A stretch of 64,000 nucleotides of DNA from a virus. Lineage: Duplodnaviria > Caudoviricetes. Below the pieces are notes generated by a model. The model worked only from the letters and a program-made list of their open reading frames with translations. It was not told the DNA's origin and did no database searches. Every line of letters starts with the position of its first letter. The first letter of the stretch is position 1. Position numbers and translations under genes: made by a program. Below, piece after piece: positions 18,785 through 53,142 of the stretch. Where the stretch lies: the IMG/VR virus record IMGVR_UViG_3300034420_000109, positions 23,977-87,976 of that record; one strand, written 5' to 3'.

Positions 18785-21658
18785 ATGCCCATGCTCCACG
18801 ACGGAATTGATGACTCTGAATCCATCGGCAAGGCTGACGTGGGCCCCCAGGAAGACGAGAACCGAGCGATCCGAGCGAGCATGAAGACCCCCCAGGCACA
18901 CGGCCGCCACGAGTTCCGCGCGGCGAAGTGGACGGCCGGGAACGGACACCCACGGTGCCTGGTGTGCGGGGATGAGGAACCGCAGGGCGGCATGTGCGCC
19001 GGGCTCCACGGCGCCGTCCCCACGAACGGGGACAGCATGGCTCAGGTTGCGAAGGGCGAGCCGTCGGAGGCGCAGCGGCGCGCCGGGAACTACCCCAAGA
19101 CGCACTGGCAGATGCACGGGATGCGGATCGCCATCGAGAACCTCGCCGGGACCACGCGGAGCGGCGTGGACCACAAGGGCGAGCCGTGGTCGGTGGTCAT
19201 GCCCTACCACTACGGATACATCAAGGGCACCGAGGGGGCGGACGGGGACCACCTCGACGTGGCCATCGGGCCGCTCATGGGCCAGGGCACCGAGGCCCAC
19301 ATCATCAACCAGCGCGGGCCGGACGGGGAGTTCGACGAACACAAGGTGTTCATTGGCTACCCCAGCCGTCAGGCAGCCATCAACGCGTTCAGGGAGGGGC
19401 GGAGTGACGACCCTGACGAGGTTATGGGGGCCGTGATCACCGTTCCCATTGACGAGCTGAAGCGGTGGGTTGACGAAGGATGCCTCCAGGAAGAAGCGGT
19501 GCTGAAGGCGGAGACCACGCACGTAAAGGCGCACTACCGGATCCAGAACGGCCGCGTGGTCTACATCCCGAACTACGACCGGGAGGTCCATGGTGACCAC
19601 CCCGAGGCCACCCTTCACCAGCGGACGGTGCTGGGGACGAACACGGCCGGGATCCCGTTCATCCGGGCCACCGATGCCGCGGACAGGGAGAAGGTCCTGG
19701 AGGCGGCCCGGTCCCTTGGGGTGCATCCGGAGACCCAGCGGCCCAGCGGAGCGAATCACCACGGGCGCCAGAATTCCTACCCGACCATGTTCTTTGCCAC
19801 CTACGAGCAGGCCCAGCAGGTCATGGATGCGGTGCGCGCGCGGCACGGAGACGTGGCGCATCCGCACACCACGAGCGCAGCCCCAACCCGGGGGCGCGGT
19901 GGACTGCAGGCGGCGCTGGCGGCCCACAACCAACGGCGAGACGCAACGCGAGCCGCCGTGGTCATCACCTCCGTCCAGGCGGCAGCCCACGAGGAATCAC
20001 CCGATGCGGTGCTGGCGAGTGCCATGGAACGAACTGGCGCCGACGCGGTGCGACGTCGGTTCTTTGGGACGGCCCCGGCGGGAGTCCTCGACCGAAGGGT
20101 CTACCTGGAGAACACCACCCCAGGCCACAACAAGCTCTACGTGATCGACCTCCGACAGGTAGGGGAGGGCCAGTGGGTGGTGAACGCGGGAAACGGGCGA
20201 ATTGACGGCCGGAGCATGACCGTCCGGACGAAGACCGACCGGCCCATGTCCCAGGCCGCAGCCAATGCCCTGGTGAGTCAGATCAAGGCGGAGAAGATGG
20301 GTGGCGGATACGTCTCCGTCGAAGACAGCGCCAGCCCCAGCCGCCGATACAGGTTCACCATGATGGACAATTTCAGCCACCCGATGGTGAACAGCACCAC
20401 TCCCCTCGCAGGGGAGGCGCACCGGGGCCCGGGCGTCTCGGTTCAGACCCCCGCGCGGCCTGCTGCTACACCTGCACCGACCCCAACCAGGGCCCCCACG
20501 CCAGCTGCACCGGCCGCTCCTGCTACACCAGCACCAGCGCGCGCGGCCGGGAGCACGGCGGCCCAATACAGCGCCCTCCGAGAAGCCGCATGGAACGCCG
20601 GGAACGTTGCCCGAAACACGACCGCGGACAACACCCCCGCATCATTCACGGCATCCATGGCCGCCCACCGGGCCCACCTTGCCGCAGAGCAAGTGGCGCG
20701 CGCGCTCGGGATCCCGGAGGCGAGTGACCGTGGCGCCGTGTGGCACAGCAACCGGGCGCAGCACTGGCTCCAGCACGCGAAGCAGCAATGGACCGGGGCC
20801 GTAACCCCAGCCCTTGCCCGCAGCGGGACCAATTCTGCCGTCGCCAATGGGTATGGGTTCGCGGACGCGGTGCGGGCCCTCGAGGGGAGTCAGAACATCC
20901 TGGCCCAGCGCCCCCCGGGGGCAGCCCTTCCGAGCGGAGTCACGGAGGCGAGCTACACCAGCGCGGTGGCCAACCACGACGCCAACCTCAAGTCCCTCCG
21001 AATCGGGCACGAAATTGAACAAGAGATCCGGCCAGGGACCACGCCAGGGGCCCAGGCTGCCGGTGTCACCAGCACGATCATGGACCGGATCACCCGGGGG
21101 ACCATCCCCCACGAGCATGCTGCCCCGGCCACCCGGATCGTCGAATCCATGCAGAATCTCCTCAACGCGGCGAACGCGGCCCGGAACATGGCTGAAGACC
21201 CCGCGGCCGAGCCGGACACGCTGAAGGTGGTCGCTCGCACGGTGGCTGCGATGCACACGGCTGCAACCACGGCGATGACGGCCGCGCCGGAGGCCATTCT
21301 GTGGCGGAATGCCCCGAAACGAGTGGTTGAAGACCTGGCGAAGTTCGGGGAGAAGGCGAAGCGGGAGGCAGACCGCCGGGCAGCCATGCCCCGGAAGTCG
21401 GATCCGCGCTACGCCACCGGGCACGAGCAGCACATGGAGCGCGCGGCCCAGGCGCACTCGGAGGCCGTCGGAACCAACGTGCAGCGGCCGAAGCTGATCC
21501 GAGCCATCGACGCCCACAAGCAGGCGGCCGTCTCGGTCTACCACGCGGCCCTGGCGGCCCCGAAGGGATCCCGAGAGAGGACGCACCTGATGCAGAAGGC
21601 CCAAGAGCACGCCCAGCACGCCCGGGACTTCGTGGGCAAGCTGAATGCGCGGAGGTAG
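18785..21658 (+). CDS. Polyvalent protein 1: Cys knuckle, inorganic-pyrophosphatase-like domain, GANHHGRQ domain, WGR domain and helical C-terminus
   Basis: AGNYPK...IAIEN...HYGYIKGTEGADGDHLDV...FDEHKV (PPase-like); YLENTTPGHNKLYVI...GRIDG...KMGGGY (WGR-like); RBS ggagg. Confidence 0.75.
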   Translation: MPMLHDGIDDSESIGKADVGPQEDENRAIRASMKTPQAHGRHEFRAAKWTAGNGHPRCLVCGDEEPQGGMCAGLHGAVPTNGDSMAQVAKGEPSEAQRRAGNYPKTHWQMHGMRIAIENLAGTTRSGVDHKGEPWSVVMPYHYGYIKGTEGADGDHLDVAIGPLMGQGTEAHIINQRGPDGEFDEHKVFIGYPSRQAAINAFREGRSDDPDEVMGAVITVPIDELKRWVDEGCLQEEAVLKAETTHVKAHYRIQNGRVVYIPNYDREVHGDHPEATLHQRTVLGTNTAGIPFIRATDAADREKVLEAARSLGVHPETQRPSGANHHGRQNSYPTMFFATYEQAQQVMDAVRARHGDVAHPHTTSAAPTRGRGGLQAALAAHNQRRDATRAAVVITSVQAAAHEESPDAVLASAMERTGADAVRRRFFGTAPAGVLDRRVYLENTTPGHNKLYVIDLRQVGEGQWVVNAGNGRIDGRSMTVRTKTDRPMSQAAANALVSQIKAEKMGGGYVSVEDSASPSRRYRFTMMDNFSHPMVNSTTPLAGEAHRGPGVSVQTPARPAATPAPTPTRAPTPAAPAAPATPAPARAAGSTAAQYSALREAAWNAGNVARNTTADNTPASFTASMAAHRAHLAAEQVARALGIPEASDRGAVWHSNRAQHWLQHAKQQWTGAVTPALARSGTNSAVANGYGFADAVRALEGSQNILAQRPPGAALPSGVTEASYTSAVANHDANLKSLRIGHEIEQEIRPGTTPGAQAAGVTSTIMDRITRGTIPHEHAAPATRIVESMQNLLNAANAARNMAEDPAAEPDTLKVVARTVAAMHTAATTAMTAAPEAILWRNAPKRVVEDLAKFGEKAKREADRRAAMPRKSDPRYATGHEQHMERAAQAHSEAVGTNVQRPKLIRAIDAHKQAAVSVYHAALAAPKGSRERTHLMQKAQEHAQHARDFVGKLNARR

Positions 21659-21661
21659 GCC

Positions 21662-23080
21662 ATGGCAGCCGTCGCCGAAAGGCCCGCCACCCATCAAGAG
21701 AAGCGGCACGTAACCGGGCACTACCGGACCCTGCACACGGGGAAGGTGGTCTACGTCCACGATTTCAGCGCCAGCCACGCCATCGCCAGCCACAGCCGGA
21801 GCGCACACCTGCACGAGCGGTCGGTGCTGCTGCAGAACAGGAACTCGATCCGCGTCTCGAACGCGGCGGACCTCCGCGCCATGCAGACGGCCGCGCAGCG
21901 GGAGGGGGTGGAGTTCACCCGCCGCCGGGCAGGGGCGAACCACCACGGGCGCCAGGGGGCATACGACCACCTCGACTTCCAGACCCCCGAGGCGGCCAGC
22001 AGGGTGATGGAGCACGCGCGCCTGGCGTTCGAGGGCCACAACGCCCCCATCGAGGGCCAGGGACCTGCCCAGGAGCCACGCGAACCCCGCGCGCGCGCCG
22101 TCCGACCCCCCGTCCACCCCCAGGCCGACCTTGGGCCCCAGGAGGGGGCAGACAACGGCCCGGACACGGACCCGGCACCTGCGCCTGCAGCCGCCCGCCC
22201 CGCCGCGACCGAGGAGCCCGTGGACGTGGACTCCCAGTTCGCCCGAATCTTTGGTGAGCGCATCGAGACCCCTGCCCCGGACGCGGAAGAGATCGGAGAG
22301 GCCTTCGAGGCCATCTTTGGGAAGCTGCCCAGCATTGAGCCACAGGTCCACGTCGTGAGCGCAGCGGACGCGGGAAGGGTCAGCCAGGCCGGGGGCTTCA
22401 CCGAGGTGACGTTTGACTCGTCGGCGATTCAGATCTGGAACGCCCACATCAAGGTGGATCCAGCAATCCACCTGGTGGAGATCTACAAACACTTCGGGCC
22501 CGGCGGGAGCATGCGAGTTAGCGGCGACGGCGGCAGCGGACTGACCATCACCTACAACAACAGGACCCGCGCCGGGAACTGTGAGATTACCCGGCACTAC
22601 AGCGGCCTCGGAGGCCCCAACTCTGCCGTAAGCCACTCCTATTTCCAGGTGCCATCTGGCAATCAGGGGGAGAACCAGGGCAAAAAGCTGTTTGCAGCGT
22701 CCATGGACTTCTACGAGAAAATCGGCATCAAGAAGATCACCGTCCACGCCAATATCGACATCGGATCCTATGCGTGGGCACGTTACCGATTCGTCCCGAA
22801 CGACGCCCGGCACTTCGGCGTGATTAAAACAGCGGTCGGCAGGTTCAGGCTGGCCCAGACGTGGCTGCGCGACTTCCCTGAATTCAAGCGGGCCATCGAG
22901 GGGGCCGACCCCAAGGGCGCGTGGGTGATCGCGGACCACATCTCGGACCAGATCCGAGCGGGCAAAATGACGAGAGAAGAGAACCCGATGAAGAACCTCC
23001 ACTGGTATGGGCACATCGACATGACGAATGCAGCCCACGTTCGGAAGGTGCGAGAATACGTGGGCAGGGGGGCGGCATGA
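21662..23080 (+). CDS. Polyvalent protein 2 with C-terminal GNAT-fold acetyltransferase domain
   Basis: HSYFQVPSGNQGENQGKKLF...FYEKIGIKKITVHANIDIGSYAWARYRF fits the GNAT motif A/B pattern of phage polyvalent proteins. Confidence 0.65.
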   Translation: MAAVAERPATHQEKRHVTGHYRTLHTGKVVYVHDFSASHAIASHSRSAHLHERSVLLQNRNSIRVSNAADLRAMQTAAQREGVEFTRRRAGANHHGRQGAYDHLDFQTPEAASRVMEHARLAFEGHNAPIEGQGPAQEPREPRARAVRPPVHPQADLGPQEGADNGPDTDPAPAPAAARPAATEEPVDVDSQFARIFGERIETPAPDAEEIGEAFEAIFGKLPSIEPQVHVVSAADAGRVSQAGGFTEVTFDSSAIQIWNAHIKVDPAIHLVEIYKHFGPGGSMRVSGDGGSGLTITYNNRTRAGNCEITRHYSGLGGPNSAVSHSYFQVPSGNQGENQGKKLFAASMDFYEKIGIKKITVHANIDIGSYAWARYRFVPNDARHFGVIKTAVGRFRLAQTWLRDFPEFKRAIEGADPKGAWVIADHISDQIRAGKMTREENPMKNLHWYGHIDMTNAAHVRKVREYVGRGAA

Positions 23081-23271
23081 CCCAGGAGAAGGGCACCGAA
23101 GGGTTCTACCTCGACGAAGAGGGACAGCCGCAGGACCGCGACCTCCACGGGGACTGCCAGCCGGAGAACATGGCCGGGTTCAACCGCGAAATGTGGATCT
23201 GGGGCCTCGAGGCGGGATACGAGCCCGAAGGCTTGACCCGTCTCTACGGCCCCAGGCCCGAAGGCGTCTAG
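23077..23271 (+). CDS. Small acidic protein (64 aa) translationally coupled to the GNAT gene; candidate immunity protein
   Basis: ATGA overlap at 23077-23080; MTQEKGTEGFYLDEEGQPQDRD... is D/E-rich. Confidence 0.6.
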   Translation: MTQEKGTEGFYLDEEGQPQDRDLHGDCQPENMAGFNREMWIWGLEAGYEPEGLTRLYGPRPEGV

Positions 23272-23273
23272 GC

Positions 23274-24320
23274 TTAATCCTCGAGGCGCTGGCCCCAGAG
23301 GCCCCGGCGTTCCACCTGCTGGCGCCGGGGCCTCTTGTTCTTCCGCGTCACCTCGGGCCACGCCTCCTCGCTCCCCCACCGGCTCTGGTTGGGCCGGGAG
23401 AGTTCACGGACGACCATCTCCTCGGGGATCGGCAGGCCGTAGACGCGGCAGGCCTCCCGGAAGGTGTTCAGGTGGAGGGCCAGCACGGGGTCGATGCCGG
23501 TGGAGCCGCCCCGATGGTAGCCGCCCGCCAGGTTCCAGGCCACGGGCAGGGCGAAGTCCTTGCACAACTCGAAGACCATCCGGTCCCGGGCCCGCATTTC
23601 CTCGGTGCTGATGTAGCCACCCAGGGGGTCGCACTCGTGGGGATCGGCGCCAGCCTGGTAGAGCACCACGTCGGGGTGGAAGTCGGCGATTTCCACCAGG
23701 AACTCCCGGACCTTGTCGATGTAGCCGCCGTGCCGCGCCCCGGTCTTTCCGACGGTGCGGTGGAGGATCTGCCCGCCGGGGACCTGAAAGCCACCCTTGG
23801 ACGAGACGGAAGAAGACACATGCCGGAGGATCTCGTCGGTGCCGTCGCCATAGTGGGCATCGCAGTCCAGGATCGCCACCCGGCGGGCCTTCCCCTGGGC
23901 CAGCAGCGCGAGGGCGGTGATGGCGAGGCCATTCAGGGTGCAGAACCCAGAGGCCCGGCTCCAGCCCGCGTGGTGGAACCCGGAGGAGAGGGACACGGCG
24001 GGCATGGTCGGGGTGGCGGCCAGGGCGGCCGAGAGCATGGAGCCGGAGGTGTAGGGGAGCGACCGGGCGACCCGGAGGTCGGCGTTTCCGAAGCCGTTCT
24101 GGGCCTGGCCGGACAGGATCCTCTCTACCCAATGGGCATCGTGGGCCCGGGTGAGTTCGGCGAAGAGGAGGGGGCGGGGGCCCACCACCCGAACCGGGAA
24201 GCGGCGCGCGACCAGGGCCTCGGCGACGATGGCGGGCTTCCCGGCGGACGGGGAGAAGTGGGTCATCCCGGGAACGGCCTGCTTGGGGGAGTAGAAGACG
24301 GGGATCAAGGGGGTGGACAT
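23274..24320 (-). CDS. Zn-dependent histone-deacetylase-family (AcuC/HDAC-like) amidohydrolase
   Basis: SGFHHA, SGFC, LDCDAHYGDG, YQAGADPHECDPLGG and LAGGY keep all catalytic and metal-binding residues. Confidence 0.95.
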   Translation of the reverse strand: MSTPLIPVFYSPKQAVPGMTHFSPSAGKPAIVAEALVARRFPVRVVGPRPLLFAELTRAHDAHWVERILSGQAQNGFGNADLRVARSLPYTSGSMLSAALAATPTMPAVSLSSGFHHAGWSRASGFCTLNGLAITALALLAQGKARRVAILDCDAHYGDGTDEILRHVSSSVSSKGGFQVPGGQILHRTVGKTGARHGGYIDKVREFLVEIADFHPDVVLYQAGADPHECDPLGGYISTEEMRARDRMVFELCKDFALPVAWNLAGGYHRGGSTGIDPVLALHLNTFREACRVYGLPIPEEMVVRELSRPNQSRWGSEEAWPEVTRKNKRPRRQQVERRGLWGQRLED

Positions 24321-24341
24321 TGGGGCTCCTTTGCATTACCC

Positions 24342-24390
24342 ATTATGAGCAAGGCTCACCATTTGTCAAGTCGAAGTGATAAAAATCACT
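24342..24390 (-). promoter_or_regulatory. Sigma70-type promoter of the HDAC gene with an upstream palindromic operator
   Basis: TTGACA (24369-24364) N16 CATAAT (24347-24342); perfect palindrome AGTGAT-AAAA-ATCACT at 24375-24390. Confidence 0.75.
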
Positions 24391-24454
24391 GGACAGGGAA
24401 CACGAGCCCCACCTGGTCAAGTCTGCAAAAATGAGAAGCATCCTGGAGGCGGAG

Positions 24455-27154
24455 ATGAACCACTTGAACGCTATCTTCAGCACGGCCCAGCGGCTCCAGG
24501 CGAGCCGATCCTTCCTCCGGGACCTCCGGGGCCTGGACAAGACGGCCGAGGGCGCCGAGTTCGCCAAGGCCATCGGGGAGGCCGCCGCCCTGGGGGCGAC
24601 CCCCGAGGACGTGGTGGAGCAGGTGGTCAAGGCCATGGCCGGGAACGAGGGGCTGGCGCTGGAGATCCTGATGGCGGTCCAGGAGATCGCCAAGGCCCAC
24701 GTCGAGCACCATACCCGCACCCTGGCCAACGGGAAGACGGTGGACGTGAAGGCTTACGAGACGGCCCGGACGGGCGCGATGAAGCAGACCACCATGGCCC
24801 ACGGGGCCACCTTCCACGCTATGCGGACGAAGACCCCCGAGGCCCATGAGAACGCCGCGGCAGCCCACGAGGCCGCCGCGAAGCAGCACGAGGACGCGCA
24901 CGGGGTCCACCCCATGGACGTGCCGGAGGTCGGGAAGGAACACGCGAACCTGAAGGCCCAGCACCAGATGAGCGCGGATTACCACCGCCAGGAGGCCGCG
25001 ACCATGCGCCACGGGCATGGATACGAGGTCCAGGCCAACCGGGCCGTCACCGCGTCCCAGGGGACCAAGGCGGCCATCACCACCCACCAGAGCCAGATGG
25101 CCCACCAGAAGGCGGCCGAGGAGCACAAGAAGGCCCACGAGTTCGACCCGGGCAAGGGGCACGACCAGCAGGCGGCCATGCATACGGCCCACGCCCAGGC
25201 GGCCCAGGCGGTCAACCAGTCCATGAACTCCCCCCACCAGGGATCCGACGTGAAGGGCGCGGCCGACGCCAGTCTCAAGGCCTTCCGGGCCACGACGTAT
25301 GCCCACGAGGGGAAGGGCCTGACGAGGGATGCCCACGCGGCAGCCGCCAAGGCCCACGAGGAGGCCATCAACCAGCACATGGGGATCCACGGGGCCAAGG
25401 AGAGCGACGAAGACGGCCACCACGGTCAGATCGCCAAGACCCACATGGCCCTCCACGCCTACCACTCCGCCAAGGCCCAGGCAAAGACCCCGGAGGAGGT
25501 CGCCAAGGCCCAGGTCGAGGGATACACCCGGGTGCAGGACGGCAAGGTCATCCATGTGGGAGCCTACGACAGCAAGCGACAGGCGGCCTTCGAGGCGAGC
25601 CGGGTGGCCCACGAGGCGAGCCTCACCGCCAAGTCGAAGACGGCCCACACCGCAGCTGCAGCCCTTCACGGGAAGGCTATCGCCGCCCACCGGGAGGCCT
25701 GGAATGTGACCAACCACGAGGGCCGCCGGTCCATGCACGATGCGAACATGGCCGAGCACGGGGACATGATCAGCGGGCACCGGGCCATGGCCACTGCCGG
25801 TGGCGGGTTCGAGGATCACCCGTTCCGGGCCCGGGCGGCCAGCAACCTCGCCCCCGACGTGGAAAGCGTCAAGCCGGGGGAGGAAGACGAGGCTGCGGCG
25901 GCCCATGATCGTGCCGGAAGCGCCCATGTCACGGCGATGGACGCAGCCGGGGCCAACCGATCCCACCACAGCAGTCAGGCTGATCAGCATGCCCAGGACG
26001 CGAGGAAGATCCGTGAGCGGAAGGATGCTCCGAACGATGAAGACGCAGAAGCGCACGAGGAACTCGCCACGTCAGGGGGGATCGACCTATCCAAACTCGT
26101 CCCCGGCCACAACACGGAGACGACGAGAAAATCACTCGATAGGCTTGTGAAGTTCGGCATGGCAAAGAAGGATGGCACCAGATACACGGCCACCCCAGAA
26201 GGAGAGATTGGAAAAGCCGAGGGTCCCATGACCACCCTTGGCGGCGGGACCGACCTCGCCACGAAGAGCGGCGGCGCCGCGCTGGCGGTCGAGGGCCGCC
26301 CCGGTAAGGAAGGCCGGAAGAAGCAGGACGGCATGGATTACTGCGATGCCTGCGACACCGCCTACCCGGAGGGCACCAAGCATGAGTGCCCCGGGACGGT
26401 CGCCAAGGCCCATGTCGAATCCCACACCCGGGTCGTCGGCGGGAAGACGGTGCAGGTCCAGAGCTACGACACCCACCACGCCGCAGCGATGAAGGCTTCA
26501 TTTGCCGCACAGAGCACCACCGCCCAGGCCCAGAATCCTGAGCACCACACCCATGCCGCCGCCAGCCACATGAAGGCCGCTGAGGGGCACCGCGAGGCGG
26601 CGAAATACGCCCCGGAGGACTGGCAGAAGAAGGGCCACGAGGACAACGCGAAGCTGCACGAGCACTACGCCCAAGCCCACCACGCCAAGGCGAAGGCTGC
26701 CGACCAGCGCGCGGATACCGGTGTGGACACCCCCCAGCACACCCCCCAGGACCTCAAGGAACTGGAGAACCACCACGACTATGCCGGGTTCGGATACCTC
26801 GGCCACGAACACCGAACCGACGAGACGGACAAGCACCTCACTGATGCAGCGAACAAGGCGGGGATCTCCAAGCACGAACTCGCCGCCCATGCCCTCAGCA
26901 AGTCCGGCCGCCACATGATGGACGACCACACGAACCTCGGGGAGAAGGCCAGCGAGGACGAGAAGGTCGCCCACTTCCAGAGGCACCTGACGAGCCCGAA
27001 GACCGCGAAGGAACACGGGATCAAGGAATACGCCAAGGACCTCGAGGAACGCGCCCCGGCGAAGCCTGCTGCTGGTGCGACGGAGCCGGTCACAGTCAAG
27101 CCCGCCACCCCAGAAAAGGGATATCGGATCCCACCGAAGCCGACCACCAAGTAG
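24455..27154 (+). CDS. Polyvalent protein 3: His/Ala-rich helical repeats, three beta-hairpin tags, a wHTH and a Cys knuckle
   Basis: Repeated HxxAAxxH units; three [IV]AKA-[HQ]VE-x-[HY]TR...G-K-x-[VI] motifs; RBS ggaggcggag before ATG 24455. Confidence 0.7.
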   Translation: MNHLNAIFSTAQRLQASRSFLRDLRGLDKTAEGAEFAKAIGEAAALGATPEDVVEQVVKAMAGNEGLALEILMAVQEIAKAHVEHHTRTLANGKTVDVKAYETARTGAMKQTTMAHGATFHAMRTKTPEAHENAAAAHEAAAKQHEDAHGVHPMDVPEVGKEHANLKAQHQMSADYHRQEAATMRHGHGYEVQANRAVTASQGTKAAITTHQSQMAHQKAAEEHKKAHEFDPGKGHDQQAAMHTAHAQAAQAVNQSMNSPHQGSDVKGAADASLKAFRATTYAHEGKGLTRDAHAAAAKAHEEAINQHMGIHGAKESDEDGHHGQIAKTHMALHAYHSAKAQAKTPEEVAKAQVEGYTRVQDGKVIHVGAYDSKRQAAFEASRVAHEASLTAKSKTAHTAAAALHGKAIAAHREAWNVTNHEGRRSMHDANMAEHGDMISGHRAMATAGGGFEDHPFRARAASNLAPDVESVKPGEEDEAAAAHDRAGSAHVTAMDAAGANRSHHSSQADQHAQDARKIRERKDAPNDEDAEAHEELATSGGIDLSKLVPGHNTETTRKSLDRLVKFGMAKKDGTRYTATPEGEIGKAEGPMTTLGGGTDLATKSGGAALAVEGRPGKEGRKKQDGMDYCDACDTAYPEGTKHECPGTVAKAHVESHTRVVGGKTVQVQSYDTHHAAAMKASFAAQSTTAQAQNPEHHTHAAASHMKAAEGHREAAKYAPEDWQKKGHEDNAKLHEHYAQAHHAKAKAADQRADTGVDTPQHTPQDLKELENHHDYAGFGYLGHEHRTDETDKHLTDAANKAGISKHELAAHALSKSGRHMMDDHTNLGEKASEDEKVAHFQRHLTSPKTAKEHGIKEYAKDLEERAPAKPAAGATEPVTVKPATPEKGYRIPPKPTTK

Positions 27155-27176
27155 GTCGCATCCGGGACGAATTCAT

Positions 27177-27203
27177 AGGGGCCCTTCGGGGCCCCTTCCC
27201 TTG
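27177..27203 (+). terminator. cUUCGg tetraloop hairpin, probable terminator
   Basis: AGGGGCCC-TTCG-GGGCCCCT, a perfect 8-bp stem followed by TCCCTTGT. Confidence 0.65.
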
Positions 27204-27288
27204 TGGGACAATGAGCCGCAGAATTGAGAAGGCCCGGGGCGTTGGAGCGCCACCGGGCCAGCATCACAACCCCTTCCAGGAGGATTCG

Positions 27289-27837
27289 ATGCAAGCAGAG
27301 AATACCACCCCAGCAGGAAACCGATATTGGCGCCGAGAGGGCGGGAAGATCGAGATGGAATTAACCCAGGGGAAAACATGCATCCTGGACGAAAGCGACC
27401 TGGGGAAGATTTGTTACCTGAAGTGGAGAGCATCTAAAAATCACGAGCGATTCTACGCGAAGACACATGCATACGGCCGAGATAGGAAGCGTCGTGAATT
27501 GGGCATGCACACGCTTTTACTTGGTAATCCATGGCCAGGGAAGGGAGCCCATGTCGATCACCACGATGGGAACACCCTCAACAATTGCCGATCAAACTTA
27601 AGGGCAACCGGTGCCGCCGGGAATGCTGCAAACAAGAAAAGGCCATCGAGCAATACGACCGGGTTTAAAGGTGTTTCGGTGAACCCAAAATGCACCATCC
27701 GGCCATTCCGTGCATTGGTTCAAAAGGGAGGGAAGAAGGTCTATTCCGCACAATTCGCAACAGCGGAAGAGGCGGCGGAGGCCTACGACAGAGAATCGAG
27801 GGTCCATTTTGGGGAATTTGCACGACCCAACAAGTAG
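27289..27837 (+). mobile_element. HNH_3-AP2 homing endonuclease
   Basis: HVDHHDGNTLNNCRSNLRAT followed by NTTGFKGVS...FRALVQ...FATAEEAAEAYD (AP2); visibly lower GC. Confidence 0.9.
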
Positions 27838-27870
27838 ACCAATGGGCCGCATGAGACAATCCCAACGGAG

Positions 27871-30800
27871 ATGTTCATAATGAGCGACTGGCAAGGCATC
27901 CCGATTGAAATCACGCGCAACCCGGGCGAATTCAAACTCGGGAAGGCTCCTACAGGGATCGGGTGGATGAGCCGGATGCGAGCATCCCAAGGCATCATCA
28001 AGGGTCTTGACGGCAATGGATTGTTCCCGACCAAGGCATGGATCGGTAAAAACAAGGAGTCAAAAACCGTCTTCGTCGTCCACCAGAGCCACGAAGACGG
28101 GGCGCACGATGAAAACAAACTCGTGCTCGGGTTCGATGACCCGGTGACGGCGGCAGACACCATCATGGCGCATTACCCGAAAGGGAAGCACCCCATCGAT
28201 TCAATTCATCAAATTCCCGAGGGTGGGCTTGATGACTGGATCGCCGGGAACGAAGCCTGGGCCGCCACAGCCCATGATCATCATGGGCGCCCCCACGAGC
28301 ATGGCAAAACGGTAGTGCTTTTCAATGGAGAGCGTCTCCCGGCGGAGCCCGCCGACCTGGATCTACCAGAGGAAGTGGCGAAGGCGCACGAGCCCCAACA
28401 GCCTGGGGATCGATGGGTGACCATGCATCCCAACGGGCCCGGGACGAAGGGGAGCCCCGTCCTTCTCCGGCCCGTGGCGGGACATCCCGGGCTGCACCGC
28501 GTGGTGGGAGGAGCCGGGGGGAAACTGAACTTTCTCCGGGTGAATCTCACCAAGAGCCCGGACCAATACAAGCAGGAGTCCCTCGAGCGCCGGAAACAGA
28601 CCCAGGCCGAAGAGAAGGCCAAGCTGGCGGCCATGAGCCCGGAGCAGCTGGAGGCCCACCAGCAGAAAGAGGCCCAGCTGAAGGAACACCGGAAGCGCGC
28701 CGAACAGGAGTTCATCAAGAAAGTCCTCGGGGATGACAGTCAGGAGGGAGAGGCCCCGGACCTCTTCTCGAACACCCCCGATGCCGATCCCAAGGCGGCG
28801 CGGGCCTACCACCGGGAGAGGTTGAAGCAGGCGCTCGCCGCATGCAAAGAGGCCGAGCGAAAGATCACCCTCGACGCCGAGACGCGGGTCGCGGCCGGGC
28901 TCGCCGAGGTGGGCGGGAGTGCCACCCCAGGCCTCGCCATCAACGCCATCCTGACCACCAAGGAAAACCGAGGGCCGGGATACGACCGGGCCATCGCCGA
29001 GCGCGCCGTGGCGAACGGCCTGACGGCGGAGAAGCTGACGGCCGCCAGCGCCGCCTGGCGGGAGGCCCAAGGCCTGGCGCCCAAGGCGGACCCCACCCAG
29101 CCCGGGGCCCCGCGGGATGAGGCGTCCGCGGCGGCGGCCGTCGAGATGCACACCGCGACGAAGGAACTCCGGGCCCGCCAGGCAGAGGCCACCGCCAAGG
29201 CCGTCGAGGAGGCCCTGTCGGACCACAAGAACCTGGGGGCGCTCCTGAGAGCCCGTCAGGAACTCCGGGGCGCCTACGAGGAGGCCACGGCCGCGCGCAC
29301 CGGCCGGGTCTTCGAACAGGGGTTCCTGTCCACCACCAGCGAACCCACGCCAGAGGACAAAGAGCGCCTCGTGGCCGACCTTTCAGAGCAGCTGCTGCGC
29401 GCCCATGTCCAGACCTTCCTGGATGAGGTCGAGACCAACCACCCGGACAACGAGGGGATCAACGGAGCCTGGGACCCGAGGGAAGAGGAGGGCATGGCCG
29501 CGTCTCGTGGCGGGGCCGCGTGGACCGCCCTGCACGAGGCCGGGCTGGCCATCTTCGGCGCCGGGCTCCTCGACCGAGACACCGTCGAGACCCTCGGGCC
29601 CGAGGCCGCTGCCCAGGTCCTGGCCAGGGGCATCCGGTCCCGGTTCAGCCCGGAGGACCAGAAAGAGATCCTGACGGCCCTGGAGAACCATCACGTCCAG
29701 GAGCAGCAGGTGGAACTCCCCCAGGCCACCCAGGAGGCCCAGCGCCTCCGGGCGGAGGCCCAGACGATGAAGGACCAGCTGCTCACCACCCCCAAGGACT
29801 TCGCGGCGGCGGCGGAGATGCACCGGACCCGTATCGAGGCGCTGAAGCAGGCCCGGACCACCCTGGGGGCGGCCTTGGGCCGGTTCGAGGCGCGCGCGGC
29901 CCTGGTCGCGGCTCTGCAGAGCACCCCGGCGAAGGACCTGCAGGTGCCCATGGGCCGGACCACGCCGGAGCGGGCCATGCAAGCGGCGGCGGCCATGGGC
30001 CTGCAGCCGGACGGATACACCCTGGACCACAAGGGCGGGGAGGCGGTGCTGACGATCCCGGAGGCCAGTCAAGACAAGCTCCTGAAGCCGGTGGACCACG
30101 CCGCGGTGGCCGAGCGGGAACTGGCCATGAGCATCAAGCGGGGCGACATGGACGAGGCAGGCTACCTGCCCCCGGGGTTCGCCAGCCGCACTGCGAGCCG
30201 CTACGACAACCCACTCATGGAGCCCAAGGTCTTCCAGCGCCGGGTGGAACTCCCCGAGGGGGCGGACCACGAGCACCTCGAGCCCGCGCTGGCGCGCTAC
30301 ATCGGGCAGCGGTGGGCGGACGGCCACCGGGCGACGGACATCAACGCGGACATCCGTGGCGCCTCCATCCGAGACGAGATCCCGGCCCACCTGCACGGGG
30401 CCCTGGACAAGATCGTGGACAAGCTGGTGCCCACGCACGAACTGGTGCGGGACGACAGCGGGGAGCCCGTCGCGGAGATGCACAACGGGCAGATTCTCCG
30501 GGACACCGCCGGTGGCGTGGTCTACAAGACGAAGATGCGGGAGCCCAAGCAGATCGCGGCCGACGTGGAGGCCATGGGCCGGAGGTTCCTGGACGCATCT
30601 GGGGACGCGGAGACCCTGGAGGGGCAGGGGGTCGATTCGGACCACCCAGACTTCAGGGAGGCGATTCATCGCACCCTGGCCGAAGACCCCCGCCTGCAGG
30701 CCGCGCACGCCCCCATCGGGGAACTCACCGCCATCCAGCGGCAGAGCATCCGGGACTGGTTCTACCGGGAGCACCACGGGAAGAAGGGGGCCGAACTGGC

Positions 30801-33066
30801 GGACGCCCTCCAGGCCCTGGGCCCCGAACCCCCGAAGTTCGATGAGACCACCGGGGGCATGAGCCTATTTGACGACCTGGGCCCCATGGAGAGCCAGGCC
30901 TGGAACGACTGGCAGGAGAAGCACAAGGCCATCATCGAGAAGCACGGGGACACCCCGGGCACGAGCCCGTGGGCCACCTACATCCAGGCCATGGGGGGGC
31001 TGAAGCAGGCCACGGAGGCCATCCAGGGCGAGATGCAGAGCAAGCTCGCCGAGGGGTTCCATGGCCACTACGGCCGCCTGACCGGCAAGGTGCTCCAGCT
31101 GGGGACCGGGGACATCGCGCACTTCAGCAGCCACCTCAAGGCGACGTCAGGGGCCGAGAAGGCGGCCGAGCTTGAGGCCATCCGTCGGTCAAAGCAGGCG
31201 CAGATGCAGCGCGGCGGGGCCGGACGGTTCCGAAGCGTGAACGTCAGGGAGCGCATGGAACAGGCCGGGGAGGCTGGGCTGTTCGGACAGGGCGGGGCCC
31301 TGTTCGGATCCGAAGAACTCTCCGGCGCTGCGCCAGCGGAGGAGACCCCGAAGTGGGAGAAGCCGGAGCCAGCACCTGGTGAGCGCCTGCGCCTGGGTGG
31401 GCGGATCGAGGCGCAGATCGCCGCAGCCATGCCCCACGCGTCGGCGCCGTTCCAGAGCCGGACCCTCAAGCCGGTCAAGGTCGCCGAAGGGATGAGCATG
31501 GATGGCCGGTTCGCCCCCCAGCAGCGGGGCGTCAAGGCCTTCAACCACCTGCGGCGCATGGGACTGTTCTACGGCGCCGGGAGCGGGAAGACGGCCGTCC
31601 TGATGGGCAGCGCGTCGAGCCTCGTCCACAGCGGCAAGGGCAAGAAGATCCTGATGGCTGTTCCCAGCATCGTCCAAGAGCAATTCGCAGGGGAGGCCGC
31701 CAATTTCCTGGACCCCACCACCGGGATCCGCCTCCACGCCGTGCCCGGAGAGTCCTTCGAGCAGCGCCTGCAGGCTTACCGGGATCCCGAGCGCCACGCC
31801 GTCGTCATGACCCACGCGGCCGTGCGCGACGACTCGGTGAAGCTGCTCGCCAGCCACCGTGGGATCAGCGAAGACGCCGCGGCAGAGTGGGCCATGAAGG
31901 CCAGCGCCGAGGACCTGAAGACCAACCTGCGTGAAGCATTCGCCAAAGAGGGGGCCAACTTCGACGCCCTGATGGTGGACGAAGGCCACGATGCCCTGAA
32001 CCGCAAGGGGAAGCCGGACAGCCTCCTCGCCAAGATCATCGACGCCCACGGCCACAACGCCAGCCACTACATCGGCGCCACCGGCAGCCCGGTGAAGAAC
32101 GACCCCAGCGAGGCACACGACTGGCTGCACAAGATCGACCCCGTGCGCTACCCCCGCGAGGGCCGAGACGAATTCCTGCGCCGCTACGGAACCGACAGCG
32201 CGGTCAGCCGCCGGGCACTCAAGGCCGAGCTTTCCCGCTACTTCTTCGCAGAGCGGGTGGGCAGCGGCGTGACGGCCCACCACAACGACGAGACGATCCA
32301 GCTGACGGCCGAACAGCATGCGGACGTGGAGCGCATCGAGCGCGCCGCGGGCAAGCTGCGGCTGGGGGAGGACCCCGTGAGGTGGGCCAAGGAACTGGCC
32401 CCCCGCTCCTTCATCGGGAAGCCGGAGGAGGAGCACGCGGCCATCGCCGAGGGGGTAAAGAAGGCCGTCGGGACCTTCCGGGAGGCCGCCATGGACCGGG
32501 CCATCAACATCGGCGGCGGGAAAATGCACGCCGCGGTGAAGAAGGCCCGGGAGGCCGTGGCCGAGGGCAGGCCCATGATCATCTTCGCCCACCGGCTAGA
32601 GGCCGTGGAAGCGCTCCACAAGGCCATGGAGGAGGCTGGCTTGCGGGTCGCCAGCATCACCGGCAAGGACTCCTCGAAGGACAAGCCGGGCAAGCTGGCC
32701 GCATTCCAGGGCGCACCTGGCCGCCAGGCCACCGCCGACGTCCTGATCGCATCCGACGCCGCTGCCACCGGGGCGAACCTCCAGCGCGCCAAGGAACTGA
32801 TCCACTTCGACCAGCCGATGACCTACAAGACCCACGAGCAGCGCACCGCCCGCATGGACCGCCTGGGCCAGACGGAGGACGTGAACGTGACGAACCTGCT
32901 GGCGGACCACGCCTACGACCGAACCGCCCGGGAGCGGGTGAAGCGGAAGCAGACCCTGGCGGACATCTACCAATCGAAAGAAGGCTACCTGGACGACAGC
33001 GGCATCGCGCACACTCTGCGCGCGCTGCGGGCCCGGGCCGCCCAGACCAAAGAGGAGGCTGCGTGA
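27871..33066 (+). CDS. Large polyvalent protein (1731 aa): degenerate PPase-like N-terminus and C-terminal SF2/SNF2-like helicase (DarB-like)
   Basis: YGAGSGKT (Walker A), MVDEGH (motif II), GATGSP (III), MIIF (IV), SDAAATGANLQ (V), EQRTARMDRLGQ (VI). Confidence 0.85.
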   Translation: MFIMSDWQGIPIEITRNPGEFKLGKAPTGIGWMSRMRASQGIIKGLDGNGLFPTKAWIGKNKESKTVFVVHQSHEDGAHDENKLVLGFDDPVTAADTIMAHYPKGKHPIDSIHQIPEGGLDDWIAGNEAWAATAHDHHGRPHEHGKTVVLFNGERLPAEPADLDLPEEVAKAHEPQQPGDRWVTMHPNGPGTKGSPVLLRPVAGHPGLHRVVGGAGGKLNFLRVNLTKSPDQYKQESLERRKQTQAEEKAKLAAMSPEQLEAHQQKEAQLKEHRKRAEQEFIKKVLGDDSQEGEAPDLFSNTPDADPKAARAYHRERLKQALAACKEAERKITLDAETRVAAGLAEVGGSATPGLAINAILTTKENRGPGYDRAIAERAVANGLTAEKLTAASAAWREAQGLAPKADPTQPGAPRDEASAAAAVEMHTATKELRARQAEATAKAVEEALSDHKNLGALLRARQELRGAYEEATAARTGRVFEQGFLSTTSEPTPEDKERLVADLSEQLLRAHVQTFLDEVETNHPDNEGINGAWDPREEEGMAASRGGAAWTALHEAGLAIFGAGLLDRDTVETLGPEAAAQVLARGIRSRFSPEDQKEILTALENHHVQEQQVELPQATQEAQRLRAEAQTMKDQLLTTPKDFAAAAEMHRTRIEALKQARTTLGAALGRFEARAALVAALQSTPAKDLQVPMGRTTPERAMQAAAAMGLQPDGYTLDHKGGEAVLTIPEASQDKLLKPVDHAAVAERELAMSIKRGDMDEAGYLPPGFASRTASRYDNPLMEPKVFQRRVELPEGADHEHLEPALARYIGQRWADGHRATDINADIRGASIRDEIPAHLHGALDKIVDKLVPTHELVRDDSGEPVAEMHNGQILRDTAGGVVYKTKMREPKQIAADVEAMGRRFLDASGDAETLEGQGVDSDHPDFREAIHRTLAEDPRLQAAHAPIGELTAIQRQSIRDWFYREHHGKKGAELADALQALGPEPPKFDETTGGMSLFDDLGPMESQAWNDWQEKHKAIIEKHGDTPGTSPWATYIQAMGGLKQATEAIQGEMQSKLAEGFHGHYGRLTGKVLQLGTGDIAHFSSHLKATSGAEKAAELEAIRRSKQAQMQRGGAGRFRSVNVRERMEQAGEAGLFGQGGALFGSEELSGAAPAEETPKWEKPEPAPGERLRLGGRIEAQIAAAMPHASAPFQSRTLKPVKVAEGMSMDGRFAPQQRGVKAFNHLRRMGLFYGAGSGKTAVLMGSASSLVHSGKGKKILMAVPSIVQEQFAGEAANFLDPTTGIRLHAVPGESFEQRLQAYRDPERHAVVMTHAAVRDDSVKLLASHRGISEDAAAEWAMKASAEDLKTNLREAFAKEGANFDALMVDEGHDALNRKGKPDSLLAKIIDAHGHNASHYIGATGSPVKNDPSEAHDWLHKIDPVRYPREGRDEFLRRYGTDSAVSRRALKAELSRYFFAERVGSGVTAHHNDETIQLTAEQHADVERIERAAGKLRLGEDPVRWAKELAPRSFIGKPEEEHAAIAEGVKKAVGTFREAAMDRAINIGGGKMHAAVKKAREAVAEGRPMIIFAHRLEAVEALHKAMEEAGLRVASITGKDSSKDKPGKLAAFQGAPGRQATADVLIASDAAATGANLQRAKELIHFDQPMTYKTHEQRTARMDRLGQTEDVNVTNLLADHAYDRTARERVKRKQTLADIYQSKEGYLDDSGIAHTLRALRARAAQTKEEAA

Positions 33067-51341: not shown

Positions 51342-51656
51342 ATGGACGCGCTGCGGAACGTCACCGGCCTGGAGGGCCCCGAAGCCTACGCCACCACGGC
51401 GGCCATGGCCCTCGAGCACCTGGGGAACCTCTTCGCCTTCCTGGACACGCGCCTGGGCGAACTGGCGATCTTCGACCCCGAGGCCAGGGTGCAGGAGGCC
51501 ACCGTCCGGGAGGCCATCAGGGTGGGGGCGCTCGTCTGCCAGATGATGGCGACCGAGGGCCCCAAGCACGGCGCAGACCCCGCGGAGATGCGGGAGATTT
51601 GGGACGCCCTGGTGACCGAGGCGGTGCTGCGGTCCAGCCGGAAGGGCGAAGGCTAG
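51342..51656 (+). CDS. Hypothetical protein
   Basis: 104 aa helical ORF; its stop overlaps the MuF stop (CTAG). Confidence 0.55.
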   Translation: MDALRNVTGLEGPEAYATTAAMALEHLGNLFAFLDTRLGELAIFDPEARVQEATVREAIRVGALVCQMMATEGPKHGADPAEMREIWDALVTEAVLRSSRKGEG

Positions 51657-52780
51657 ACCCCGGCGAGGGCGGCCTGGAACTTCGCGGCGCGGATCGCTGC
51701 CAGCTGCTCGGCGGCGCGCTTGGCGGCGGAGGAGACCAGCGCCCGACGCATGGTCCAGACGCAGGCGCAGTTCGGGTGGGCGGGCAGGCAGGGCCACCAC
51801 ATCTCGTCCGGCCCCCGGCGGGAGCCATCCCGGCGCGTGGGGTGAGCAGAGCGGCCGACGTTGTGCTTCCCGGGCCAGACCATCGTGCGGCCGTCCAGCA
51901 CCGGGGCATCCGCGGGGACGACCTTCAGCACCGTGCCGTTGTGCCCGCGGCAGAAGGGACAGGCTTTGGGCCCGGCCACCCAGACCGCCTCCCACTGGCC
52001 ACCGCTGTCGAGGGCTGCCTGCAGCTGCCCCGAAGAGACGGCCATGCCGGTCTCGGTGATGGCGATCCGACGCCAGTCCCGGTTCAGGTTCCCCAGGCGC
52101 TCCAGCAGCACCCGGGAGAGTTCGTGGTGGTTCCCGCCGCCCATCTGCGATTCCACCAGGGCCTCGAGGATGGAGGAGCGGGCCGAGGTGGTCATCCGGG
52201 TCACAAACTGGGCACCGCGGACCTGGGCCCACTCGACCTGCTTCTGCTGGGCCGGGGGGAGGACGTGGAAGAGGCGATCCCAGGCGCCGGGGGTGGTGAC
52301 GGCATGCACCCGCTGGCCGATCTGGTCCAGCAGGGAGGAGCGGAGAGCCCACATGGCGGCCTGGGACTGGGCAGTCTGGGCCGGGAGGAGGGTGCGGGTG
52401 AACCCATCCACCAGGGTTTCCCAGGTGGCCAGGCGCTCAGCCGCGGGGGCCGGTGACTGGAACAGGGCCATGACCTCACCCCAGCCAGGCGGGCGGGGAG
52501 CGTCGGCCTTGGTGACGAAGGGGGAGGGCTTCTCGACCCCGAGCACGGCGCCGAGCATGTCCCGCAGGAACCGATGCCCCAGCCCGAACAGCTGGTCCTC
52601 AATCCAGGCCTGGTTGGGATCCGGGTGCTTGCCCCACAGGGACCGCTCGACCTCGATATCCCCGGCCGTGGGGGGGCGCCTGATGATCCGCATCGGGCGC
52701 TCTGCCTTCAGAACGACCTCGCCCGCCGGTTCAGCACGGCGGGCGGTGGCGCGGAGGATTCGGGGATCGGGGGTGGTCAT
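51653..52780 (-). CDS. Head morphogenesis protein (MuF/SPP1 gp7-like)
   Basis: RDWRRIAITETG; ACPFC; PAHPNCACVW. Confidence 0.85.
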   Translation of the reverse strand: MTTPDPRILRATARRAEPAGEVVLKAERPMRIIRRPPTAGDIEVERSLWGKHPDPNQAWIEDQLFGLGHRFLRDMLGAVLGVEKPSPFVTKADAPRPPGWGEVMALFQSPAPAAERLATWETLVDGFTRTLLPAQTAQSQAAMWALRSSLLDQIGQRVHAVTTPGAWDRLFHVLPPAQQKQVEWAQVRGAQFVTRMTTSARSSILEALVESQMGGGNHHELSRVLLERLGNLNRDWRRIAITETGMAVSSGQLQAALDSGGQWEAVWVAGPKACPFCRGHNGTVLKVVPADAPVLDGRTMVWPGKHNVGRSAHPTRRDGSRRGPDEMWWPCLPAHPNCACVWTMRRALVSSAAKRAAEQLAAIRAAKFQAALAGV

Positions 52781-53142
52781 ACGGACTCGAAGACGCCGGA
52801 GGTCAGGAACCCGTGCCACCGGCAGGGCGTGACTGTCGCCAGGGAGGGACGGAGGGTGGGGGCCTCCAGGTTCCCGTCCCAGGCCCAGCAGGGGCCCAGG
52901 GAGGGATCGGGCGGGGGATCAGAGGGCCCCTGGATCTTGACGTTGTGGACCACCATGCAGCCGCACGGGCAAGCGAAGGTGAACCGGCGCTCACCGAAGG
53001 CGAACTCCCCGACAGCGAAGGCGCCGCGGGGAGTCCAGGGATCCAGCAGCACGAGGGCACGGTCACCGCCAGGGAGTTCCCGCACCTTGCCGGGAAGGGC
53101 ATCCCGGCGCACGGCGTGGACCTTCGGCGGGCCGGGCATCAC
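52777..53142 (-). CDS. DUF6527-like small Cys/His protein
   Basis: FACPCGC...WAWDGNLEAPTLRPSL...CRWHGFLTSG; coupled to both neighbours. Confidence 0.55.
   Translation of the reverse strand: MMPGPPKVHAVRRDALPGKVRELPGGDRALVLLDPWTPRGAFAVGEFAFGERRFTFACPCGCMVVHNVKIQGPSDPPPDPSLGPCWAWDGNLEAPTLRPSLATVTPCRWHGFLTSGVFESV

Follow-up and report, generated by a model that had tools for sequence, protein, structure and literature searches.

A phage locus encoding a divergent GNAT-fold protein, its conserved small partner and a class-IV deacylase

Introduction

Injected phage effectors that modify host proteins have been well studied for ADP-ribosylation and phosphorylation; to our knowledge, effectors that act by acylation have hardly been studied. 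Here we analyze a locus at positions 21662-24390 of a 64,000-nucleotide stretch of viral DNA (Duplodnaviria; Caudoviricetes), which we call the window and which covers positions 23,977-87,976 of IMG/VR record IMGVR_UViG_3300034420_000109. The locus comprises a 472-aa protein ending in a GNAT (acetyltransferase) fold, an overlapping gene for a 64-aa acidic protein, here called the partner, and a convergent gene for a Zn-dependent deacylase of the HDAC family. An earlier note, drawn from the sequence letters, had read these genes as an acetylation writer, its immunity protein and an eraser.

GNATs in injected polyvalent proteins of phages and conjugative elements are the subject of sections of Iyer et al. 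2017 (PMC5512222). As in those sections, we find a RimI-like GNAT in a setting of DNA-codelivered proteins, with InPase, MuF, ADP-ribosyltransferase (ART), Zeta and superfamily 2 (SF2) helicase domains as co-occurring partners, and the GNAT clade of the window is probably the first GNAT family of that survey, which neighbors ART domains. The window protein differs in being short, at 472 aa, and split from its neighbors, and in its altered P-loop and YGF motif. The words ‘deacetylase’ and ‘HDAC’ were not found in that survey, and its GNAT passages describe no small partner module. The MuF polymorphic toxins of Jamet et al. 2017 (PMC5576092) also carry a variable C-terminal effector on a virion-associated carrier, with a small ORF (open reading frame) directly downstream. 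Our protein departs from them in lacking a MuF domain, in coming from a phage with no sign of being temperate, and in having a partner that is sometimes cis-fused; no GNAT is named among the MuF toxin domains in PMC5576092.

Writer and eraser genes lie side by side in Bacillus subtilis acuABC (PMC2648355 and PMC2446994, cited in PMC11532494), where, in the parts of these sources used here, the GNAT writer AcuA and the Zn-dependent HDAC-family eraser AcuC act on one substrate, acetyl-CoA synthetase. In contrast to our locus, the acu system serves cellular metabolism, and AcuC falls outside class IV; as far as those parts go, the system has no small partner, virion context or convergent layout. 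Rac of the phiKMV-like phages (PMC7552054, cited in PMC7824862) is, in the passages concerned, a phage GNAT that serves host takeover by acetylating the alpha subunit of RNA polymerase. It differs in being a small early protein outside any polyvalent or virion-effector context, and it is not known to have a partner or a deacylase.

In the literature searched, which was incomplete, no paper was found that describes a phage GNAT-HDAC pair or the partner module. The main new result of our analysis is a family of small modules that accompanies the GNAT clade and is present in neither Pfam nor PHROGs.

Results

A divergent GNAT domain

The effector gene (21662-23080, plus strand) encodes an N-terminal module (residues 3-120), an acidic, disordered Pro/Ala-rich linker (about 130-235) and a conserved C-terminal region (186-472) that contains the GNAT core (about 285-472). 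Direct sequence searches of Pfam, PHROGs, NCBIfam, PADLOC and the PDB with the 472-aa protein gave no GNAT or other match, and the 64-aa protein was likewise without a match in them. Structure and profile comparisons are more informative. Nearly all of the top 50 structure matches to an AlphaFold2 model of the window domain (pLDDT 74.5) are GNATs, with Z scores of 5-7.3, and the model of one family member, P0044, whose GNAT part exceeds a pLDDT of 90, retrieves GCN5, PCAF and RimI in Foldseek (probability 1.00, E 4e-4). Here and below, labels of the type P0008 denote GNAT-family proteins from our profile search, and those of the type L001 homologous loci or contigs. In five family proteins (P0009, P0012, P0014, P0019 and P0023), segments annotated by Pfam as Acetyltransf_1, 7 or 10 are also the ones recognized by a profile of the domain (E 1e-17 to 1e-28). 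Against the PDB this profile gives weak GNAT matches (E 0.16); a structure search of the Atlas also returns GNAT clusters, and both the Atlas and the JGI annotation label relatives as GNAT. As modeled, the protein ends in a genuine but divergent GNAT-fold domain, and the GNAT-like C-terminus proposed in the earlier note is thus supported by profile and fold evidence.

The divergence lies in part in motif A, the beta4-alpha3 loop (22664-22684, plus strand; Q335-G-E-N-Q-G-K341 in our alignments), which the earlier note had rightly flagged as non-canonical. Across 139 domain instances the family consensus is the canonical Q-G-x-G-x-[GA]-K, and the window clade has Asn or Asp at the central glycine (G338), giving QGENQG. 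In the same clade G376 is replaced by Arg, such that ‘YGF’ reads ‘YRF’. The near-invariant residues of the family (H325, Y351, A363-N364, G368, Y370, W372, W448 and Y466) are all kept. Asparagine and aspartate are the usual replacements for glycine at positive-phi turns and, because they commonly substitute there, the divergent domain is, from its sequence, probably catalytically active.

Should the domain of the window clade instead be catalytically dead and serve a structural or binding role, the changes from QGxGxG to QGENQG and from YGF to YRF would be accounted for, as would the missing direct Pfam match of the 472-aa protein. We regard this as very improbable, since, besides the tolerance of such turns for Asn and Asp, the domain retains H325, Y351, N364, D366, Y370 and W372, and six members with about 50% identity share 118 invariant positions.

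A more distant sub-lineage (L014, L010 and L013) retains the canonical glycines in its GNAT (QGSG..., RYGF). At the partner position this sub-lineage has a small ORF (L014:9092-9313, minus strand; L010:10988-11179; L013:1475-1675) without detectable homology to the partner module described below. The replacement of the two glycines and the type of partner may thus have changed together between sub-lineages.

A profile of residues 186-472 (alignment A2) recovered a clade of 1872 representatives at E ≤0.001, of which 600 reach E ≤1e-10. Many of these proteins are 1400-6200 aa long and contain the domain as many as six times. Within the clade it is joined to MuF, two portal families, InPase, ART, Zeta toxin, NUDIX, an Acb1-like 2H phosphoesterase and a capsid protease. 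In 73 of 81 viral ORFs the domain sits at the extreme C-terminus. The clade is nonetheless rare among viral contigs: a family-wide alignment found about 252 matches in 2.9 million IMG/VR contigs (about 1e-4), a scan in which the window-clade alignment gave no match. The MuF, portal and InPase fusions, together with the polyvalent neighbors of the window gene, bear out the virion-effector context that the earlier note had assumed. Three to six tandem copies per giant polyvalent protein occur in P0008, P0009, P0010, P0011 and P0022; P0008 (2067 aa) combines MuF with up to six.

A small module accompanies the GNAT clade

The partner gene (23077-23271, plus strand) starts with an ATG at 23077 that overlaps the TGA of the effector gene at 23078-23080 (ATGA). 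Its 64-aa product has a net charge of -9 and an isoelectric point (pI) of 4.2, and its GC content at third codon positions, 0.88, resembles that of the phage's real genes. With a pI of 9.8 and a net charge of +9, the basic GNAT core is complementary to the -9 of the partner, and physical binding of the two is likely, judged from their sequences.

All close relatives keep an ORF of 64-75 aa overlapping the GNAT stop, and a small ORF immediately downstream of the domain is present at 67 of 73 GNAT-family loci. A hidden Markov model (HMM) of the wider module family matches 66 of 80 GNAT-family viral loci; 63 of these matches start within 400 nt of the end of the GNAT domain, mostly within 20 nt, all strong matches adjoin the GNAT domain of this one clade, and there is none in about 60 loci that have an HDAC only. 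As this HMM was trained partly on the loci that it scores, the clean test is an HMM built from five window-clade partners only, which, in at least 27 unrelated IMG/VR loci, detected a homologue immediately behind the GNAT (E <0.01). The module carries the motif F-Y-x-D-E-x-G-x-x-x-D-A-x-L-H-x-x-I-L, in which the A position is variable in the shorter form, and no Pfam family was detected in the 64-aa protein or ten homologues. It is therefore well supported that GNAT clade and module are a specific functional pair, a widespread cassette of virion-associated effectors, and the coupled acidic ORF singled out in the earlier note is a conserved partner gene with a module family of its own.

The module is not confined to separate genes. 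In P0044 it is fused behind the GNAT, as it is in L088 (L088:6045-8699), where portal, GNAT and module form one polypeptide; it precedes the GNAT in P0034, and follows GNAT copies inside P0012, P0014, P0016 and P0057. Zeta-toxin (PF06414) kinase proteins, whose genes lie directly downstream of GNAT genes (L120:6234-7361 and L109:2722-3885), begin with it as well. Given that the module is found in cis on either side of the GNAT and is also joined to other enzymes, it can be read as an accessory subunit no less readily than as a classical immunity protein. The partner could be an inhibitor, an activator or a targeting subunit, roles that the sequence evidence does not tell apart. Of the immunity role first proposed for it, the conserved, coupled partner stands; immunity itself becomes one reading among several, given that the module is also cis-fused to the GNAT, to Zeta proteins and to a GNAT-free domain.

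In type II GNAT pairs such as TacT/TacA and AtaT/AtaR, the antitoxin gene lies upstream and encodes a ribbon-helix-helix (RHH) DNA-binding domain. The window genes share with them a GNAT and a small cognate protein, and TacT (7ak7) is among the fold matches of the window domain (Z 4.8). The window partner, in contrast, is encoded downstream, has no Pfam family (neither RHH nor DUF1778) and stands in a virion-effector context. We rejected a type II toxin-antitoxin reading, as neither gene order nor partner type fits.

A class-IV deacylase with its own promoter

The third gene (23274-24320, minus strand; 348 aa) converges on the partner gene: the last base of the partner's TAG is at 23271, the bases ‘gc’ come next, and at 23274-23276 lies the TAA of the deacylase gene on the reverse strand, a 2-nt gap. 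Its product matches PF00850 at E 1e-33 and 114 bits, against a curated cut-off of 27.9. The best solved relative is PDB 9rje (clade-A chrHDAC11-1; E 5e-32), and clade-B liHDAC11 (9rjd/9gz5) follows at E 1e-13. The catalytic His-His dyad (H116/H117), the Asp-His-Asp Zn ligands (D154, H156 and D226) and the catalytic Tyr (Y268), as well as D152, do not vary across five lineages whose HDACs are 64-86% identical. From sequence, the protein is a catalytically complete class-IV (HDAC11-like) Zn deacylase. With the characterized class-IV enzymes (9RJE and 9RJD, PMC13325672) and with Vibrio cholerae HdaH (PMC11532494) it has in common the catalytic core, a GFHH gatekeeper motif like that of HDAC11 and the catalytic Tyr of GGY. 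It differs in being phage-encoded and in mixing clade signatures: its Phe gatekeeper (SSGFHH) is a clade-B signature, though the best score is to clade-A 9rje, and of the clade-A pair it keeps the Arg and not the Glu, as read by eye from the alignment. The basic C-terminal tail (residues 296-348; RKNKRPRRQQVERR...) is poorly conserved, varies in length and is missing in L010.

Characterized class-IV HDACs are long-chain fatty-acyl deacylases or are inactive on acyl-peptides; clade-A enzymes show no activity on acyl-peptides and are thought to use non-peptide substrates (PMC13325672). A role as an acetyl-lysine eraser, as first envisaged for the window enzyme, is therefore an assumption, and the characterized members speak against it.

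A sigma-70-type promoter (TTGACA, 16 nt, CATAAT; 24369-24342, minus strand) matches the consensus at 11 of 12 positions, where 0.5 such sites are expected in shuffled sequence. It lies 22 nt upstream of the deacylase start codon and is followed by an AAGGAG ribosome-binding site. The -35 and -10 elements and the Shine-Dalgarno sequence are kept in five relatives (L001, L003, L004, L010 and L014) in which the other intergenic DNA has diverged. Both parts of the earlier description of this gene, a catalytically complete Zn enzyme and a promoter of its own, are thereby upheld. A terminator-like hairpin with a T-run lies at 24392-24413 (minus strand), just upstream of this promoter, in the intergenic region divergent with the gene for a 907-aa protein. 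Between the convergent partner and deacylase genes (23269-23276) no terminator-like site was found, and transcripts should consequently run antisense into each other's gene. The two gene ends, 2 nt apart in the window, overlap by 4 nt in two relatives (L001:11586-11589 and L004:3719-3722).

Linkage of the deacylase to the GNAT

Every close relative whose contig covers both flanks (L001-L006, L010-L012 and L014) shows the convergent GNAT-partner-HDAC order, and a gap of 0-3 nt or an overlap persists down to 64% HDAC identity. In two further lineages the HDAC also neighbors proteins with a C-terminus of this type. In L071 (GC 0.50) the GNAT (E 6e-29) is at the C-terminus of an 880-aa protein, the module ORF is weak, and an HDAC lies 1.4 kb downstream. 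In L054/L056 (GC 0.53) a pair of large paralogs whose C-terminus is weakly GNAT-like is encoded immediately upstream of the HDAC. GNAT-HDAC adjacency is found at three separate places (the window lineage, L071 and L054/L056) on the HDAC tree, a quick IQ-TREE run.

Beyond these lineages the two families are mostly apart, in counts that come from pattern-seeded scans of contigs that are often fragments. About 60 of 65 IMG/VR HDAC loci have no member of the GNAT clade within 8 kb, their neighbors being sheath, tube, DnaB and ribonucleotide reductase (RNR) genes, and the clade occurs anywhere in only 3 of 25 HDAC-bearing viral records. Conversely, none of 80 GNAT loci has an HDAC within 8 kb, and none of 20 other GNAT-bearing phage genomes (17 of them ≥90% complete) has one anywhere. 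L008 and L009 keep GNAT and partner with other genes at the HDAC site; both are fragment contigs, and an HDAC elsewhere in these phages is possible.

No fusion of the two enzymes was confirmed: PF00850 is present in 0 of 94 long GNAT-family proteins, the HDAC HMM matches 0 of the top 150 representatives, and long HDAC reading frames in bacterial loci contain PF00850 only, a search for longer HDACs having found no fusion. One Atlas cluster of 628-aa bacterial proteins, all with PF00850, structurally matches the GNAT region (TM 0.67 over 205 residues) and is a candidate, as yet unconfirmed HDAC-GNAT fusion.

It is a distinct possibility that the HDAC functions independently of the GNAT. As an early deacylase with an auxiliary or host-takeover role, it would target acyl-lysines of the host, acetylpolyamines or some other small molecule, and would merely happen to lie at the operon boundary of the accessory region. 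Its usual company of sheath, tube, DnaB and RNR genes points that way, as do the near-absence of shared records, its own promoter on the opposite strand, a nearest solved relative from clade A with its supposed non-peptide substrates, and its stronger conservation among relatives (64-86% identity, against about 50-79% for the GNAT protein). What this explanation leaves unaccounted for is that HDACs came to lie beside polyvalent-type GNAT proteins at three separate points of their tree despite the rarity of the GNAT clade, and that the tight convergent arrangement survives at 64% HDAC identity. GNAT-HDAC adjacency, then, is conserved in the window lineage and recurs in two others but is not general. 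The HDAC is a separable accessory that has repeatedly been joined to such effectors, and a link to the GNAT as its eraser is plausible. Co-occurrence of the three genes in relatives, which the earlier note had proposed as a check, holds for every close relative with both flanks and fails at the syntenic site of L008/L009 and in the wider GNAT loci. The HDAC thus does occur independently of the GNAT, which that note had listed as part of a refuting outcome.

An integrative element with module and deacylase

The closest HDACs in cellular records come from metagenome-assembled genomes of Holophagaceae, at 59-64% identity. One element there (L240:10001-11926; also L241, L242, L160 and L161) encodes a 294-aa protein that consists of a 235-aa domain and a module of the window type (63% identity). 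Its gene is convergent, across a 3-nt gap, with an HDAC gene whose product is 59% identical to that of the phage. According to precomputed Pfam hits, the element also carries an integrase, Prim-Pol, DnaB, Bro/ANT, an Mrr-type nuclease (Mrr_cat) and AbiEii. The 235-aa domain, examined in L161, showed no GNAT-family similarity (hhalign probability 0.15) and no PDB match. These findings suggest that Holophagaceae are the probable host group and that the module-HDAC pair has been exchanged between phage and element.

The element also bears on what the module does. Its module is attached to an unrelated domain and paired with an HDAC where there is no GNAT; elsewhere the module opens Zeta-toxin proteins and is found both before and after GNAT domains. 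All this would be expected of an effector-agnostic adaptor, for instance one whose ligand is a host target, the capsid or the HDAC, that recruits whatever enzyme is attached to it, as opposed to an inhibitor of the GNAT. Such a role seems unlikely to us, because all strong module matches adjoin the GNAT of one clade, the Zeta fusions themselves sit in genes directly downstream of a GNAT gene, and the element is the one non-GNAT context found for the module.

Genome setting

The virus record from which the window is taken is complete: it is 87,976 bp long, has direct terminal repeats and a GC content of 68%, and encodes a portal protein, MuF, DnaG primase and a DNA methylase. The 472-aa protein itself has no MuF domain (PF04233) in Pfam searches; the MuF gene of this phage lies elsewhere, at 51653-52819. 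Over about 22300-23050, the C-terminal half of the effector gene, GC falls to 0.58-0.63 from about 0.68-0.72 in the flanks; this dip, the three-gene layout, the ATGA overlap and the 2-nt gap between stops are all as the earlier note described them. Nothing in the INPHARED phage collection matched the DNA of the locus or the GNAT domain.

Directly upstream of the locus are minus-strand baseplate and tail genes, and on its other side is a run of plus-strand polyvalent-type proteins. A 957-aa polyvalent protein with an InPase domain (PF18823; 18785-21658, plus strand) immediately precedes the effector. Residues 233-351 of that protein match residues 3-120 of the 472-aa protein at 37% identity (E 1e-15), defining a common module of about 120 aa (19481-19837 and 21662-22021) with a hairpin ‘H-Y-R-x-x-x-G-K-V-V-Y-V’ and the sequence ‘GANHHGRQ’. 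From this homology, the two proteins share one module and differ in payload. Downstream (24431-33066, plus strand) lie the genes of a 907-aa protein that belongs to no known family, of an HNH endonuclease, and of a polyvalent protein of 1731 aa with InPase and SF2-helicase (DarB-like) domains. The 907-aa protein shows hairpins similar to the common N-terminal module. The HNH gene (27211-27837; PF13392, phrog_99) is inserted among the polyvalent-protein genes and is missing there in L001 and L010. Hallmarks of polyvalent proteins are thus present, with PF18823 in the 957-aa and 1731-aa proteins and Helicase_C in the latter, split over several genes; the locus is best explained as an accessory effector region of the polyvalent-protein type.

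No tyrosine or serine recombinase (PF00589, PF00239), integrase or resolvase was found in the complete genome. A complete genome of this kind points to a phage that, by its gene content, is probably virulent rather than temperate. Protection of lysogens, which the earlier note had offered as one purpose of the system, is rejected on this ground. The model of which it formed a part, an injected GNAT toxin with a small immunity protein and an HDAC eraser for timed takeover and lysogen protection, agrees with the opposite charges of partner and GNAT and with the conserved HDAC promoter. As a whole we find it quite improbable: no lysogens are expected without an integrase or resolvase, and a module cis-fused to the GNAT in both orders, and to Zeta toxin and another domain besides, would be unusual for an effector-specific immunity protein.

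Discussion

We consider the best explanation of this locus to be a virion-delivered GNAT with a small cognate partner and a deacylase that limits or reverses its mark, and would put the probability of this at about 45%. We infer that the 472-aa effector, with its presumably acyl-CoA-dependent transferase domain, is packaged in the virion, delivered with the DNA and acylates some target of the host. Its 64-aa acidic partner, whose translation is coupled to that of the effector, would bind the basic GNAT domain, probably 1:1, and either keep the enzyme silent in the producing cell as an inhibitor or act as a regulatory or targeting subunit. The class-IV HDAC would be transcribed alone, and presumably early, from its conserved promoter of the host type. 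Its most likely role in this lineage would be to limit or reverse acylation by the GNAT, which supposes that both enzymes share a substrate, or else to remove a related host acyl mark.

Several observations weigh against this explanation. Packaging of the 472-aa protein is something that we infer, and two glycines found family-wide, G338 in the coenzyme A (CoA) loop and G376, are replaced in the window clade. The ORF at the partner position of the L010/L013/L014 sub-lineage is not recognizable as the module, and the characterized relatives of the HDAC favor fatty-acyl or non-peptide substrates. GNAT and module exist without HDAC, just as module and HDAC exist without GNAT, and the counts for both families, including the other genes at the HDAC site of L008/L009, fall on the same side. 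Of the eraser proposal in the earlier note, there remain the order kept in close relatives and the adjacency that recurs on the HDAC tree; as a general rule it is contradicted by the many independent HDACs and by the GNAT genomes that have none.

It is tempting to extend the virion-delivered GNAT, partner and deacylase to a more general phage acylation switch. In it, a virion-delivered writer would belong to more than 1800 GNAT effectors gated by one partner family, an early class-IV HDAC would serve as eraser in some lineages, and the module-HDAC pair in an integrative element of the probable host might be a counter-measure. We think this broader scheme rather unlikely as it stands.

The three genes form a compact system that is directly testable. 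A large clade of GNAT effectors is almost always accompanied by one small partner module, so that a function for the partner would annotate hundreds of phage genes. If the HDAC does reverse the mark set by the GNAT, the locus would be the first phage writer-eraser pair in the literature that we could search. It would also show what an HDAC11-like enzyme from a bacterium or phage naturally acts on, in a class with few known substrates.

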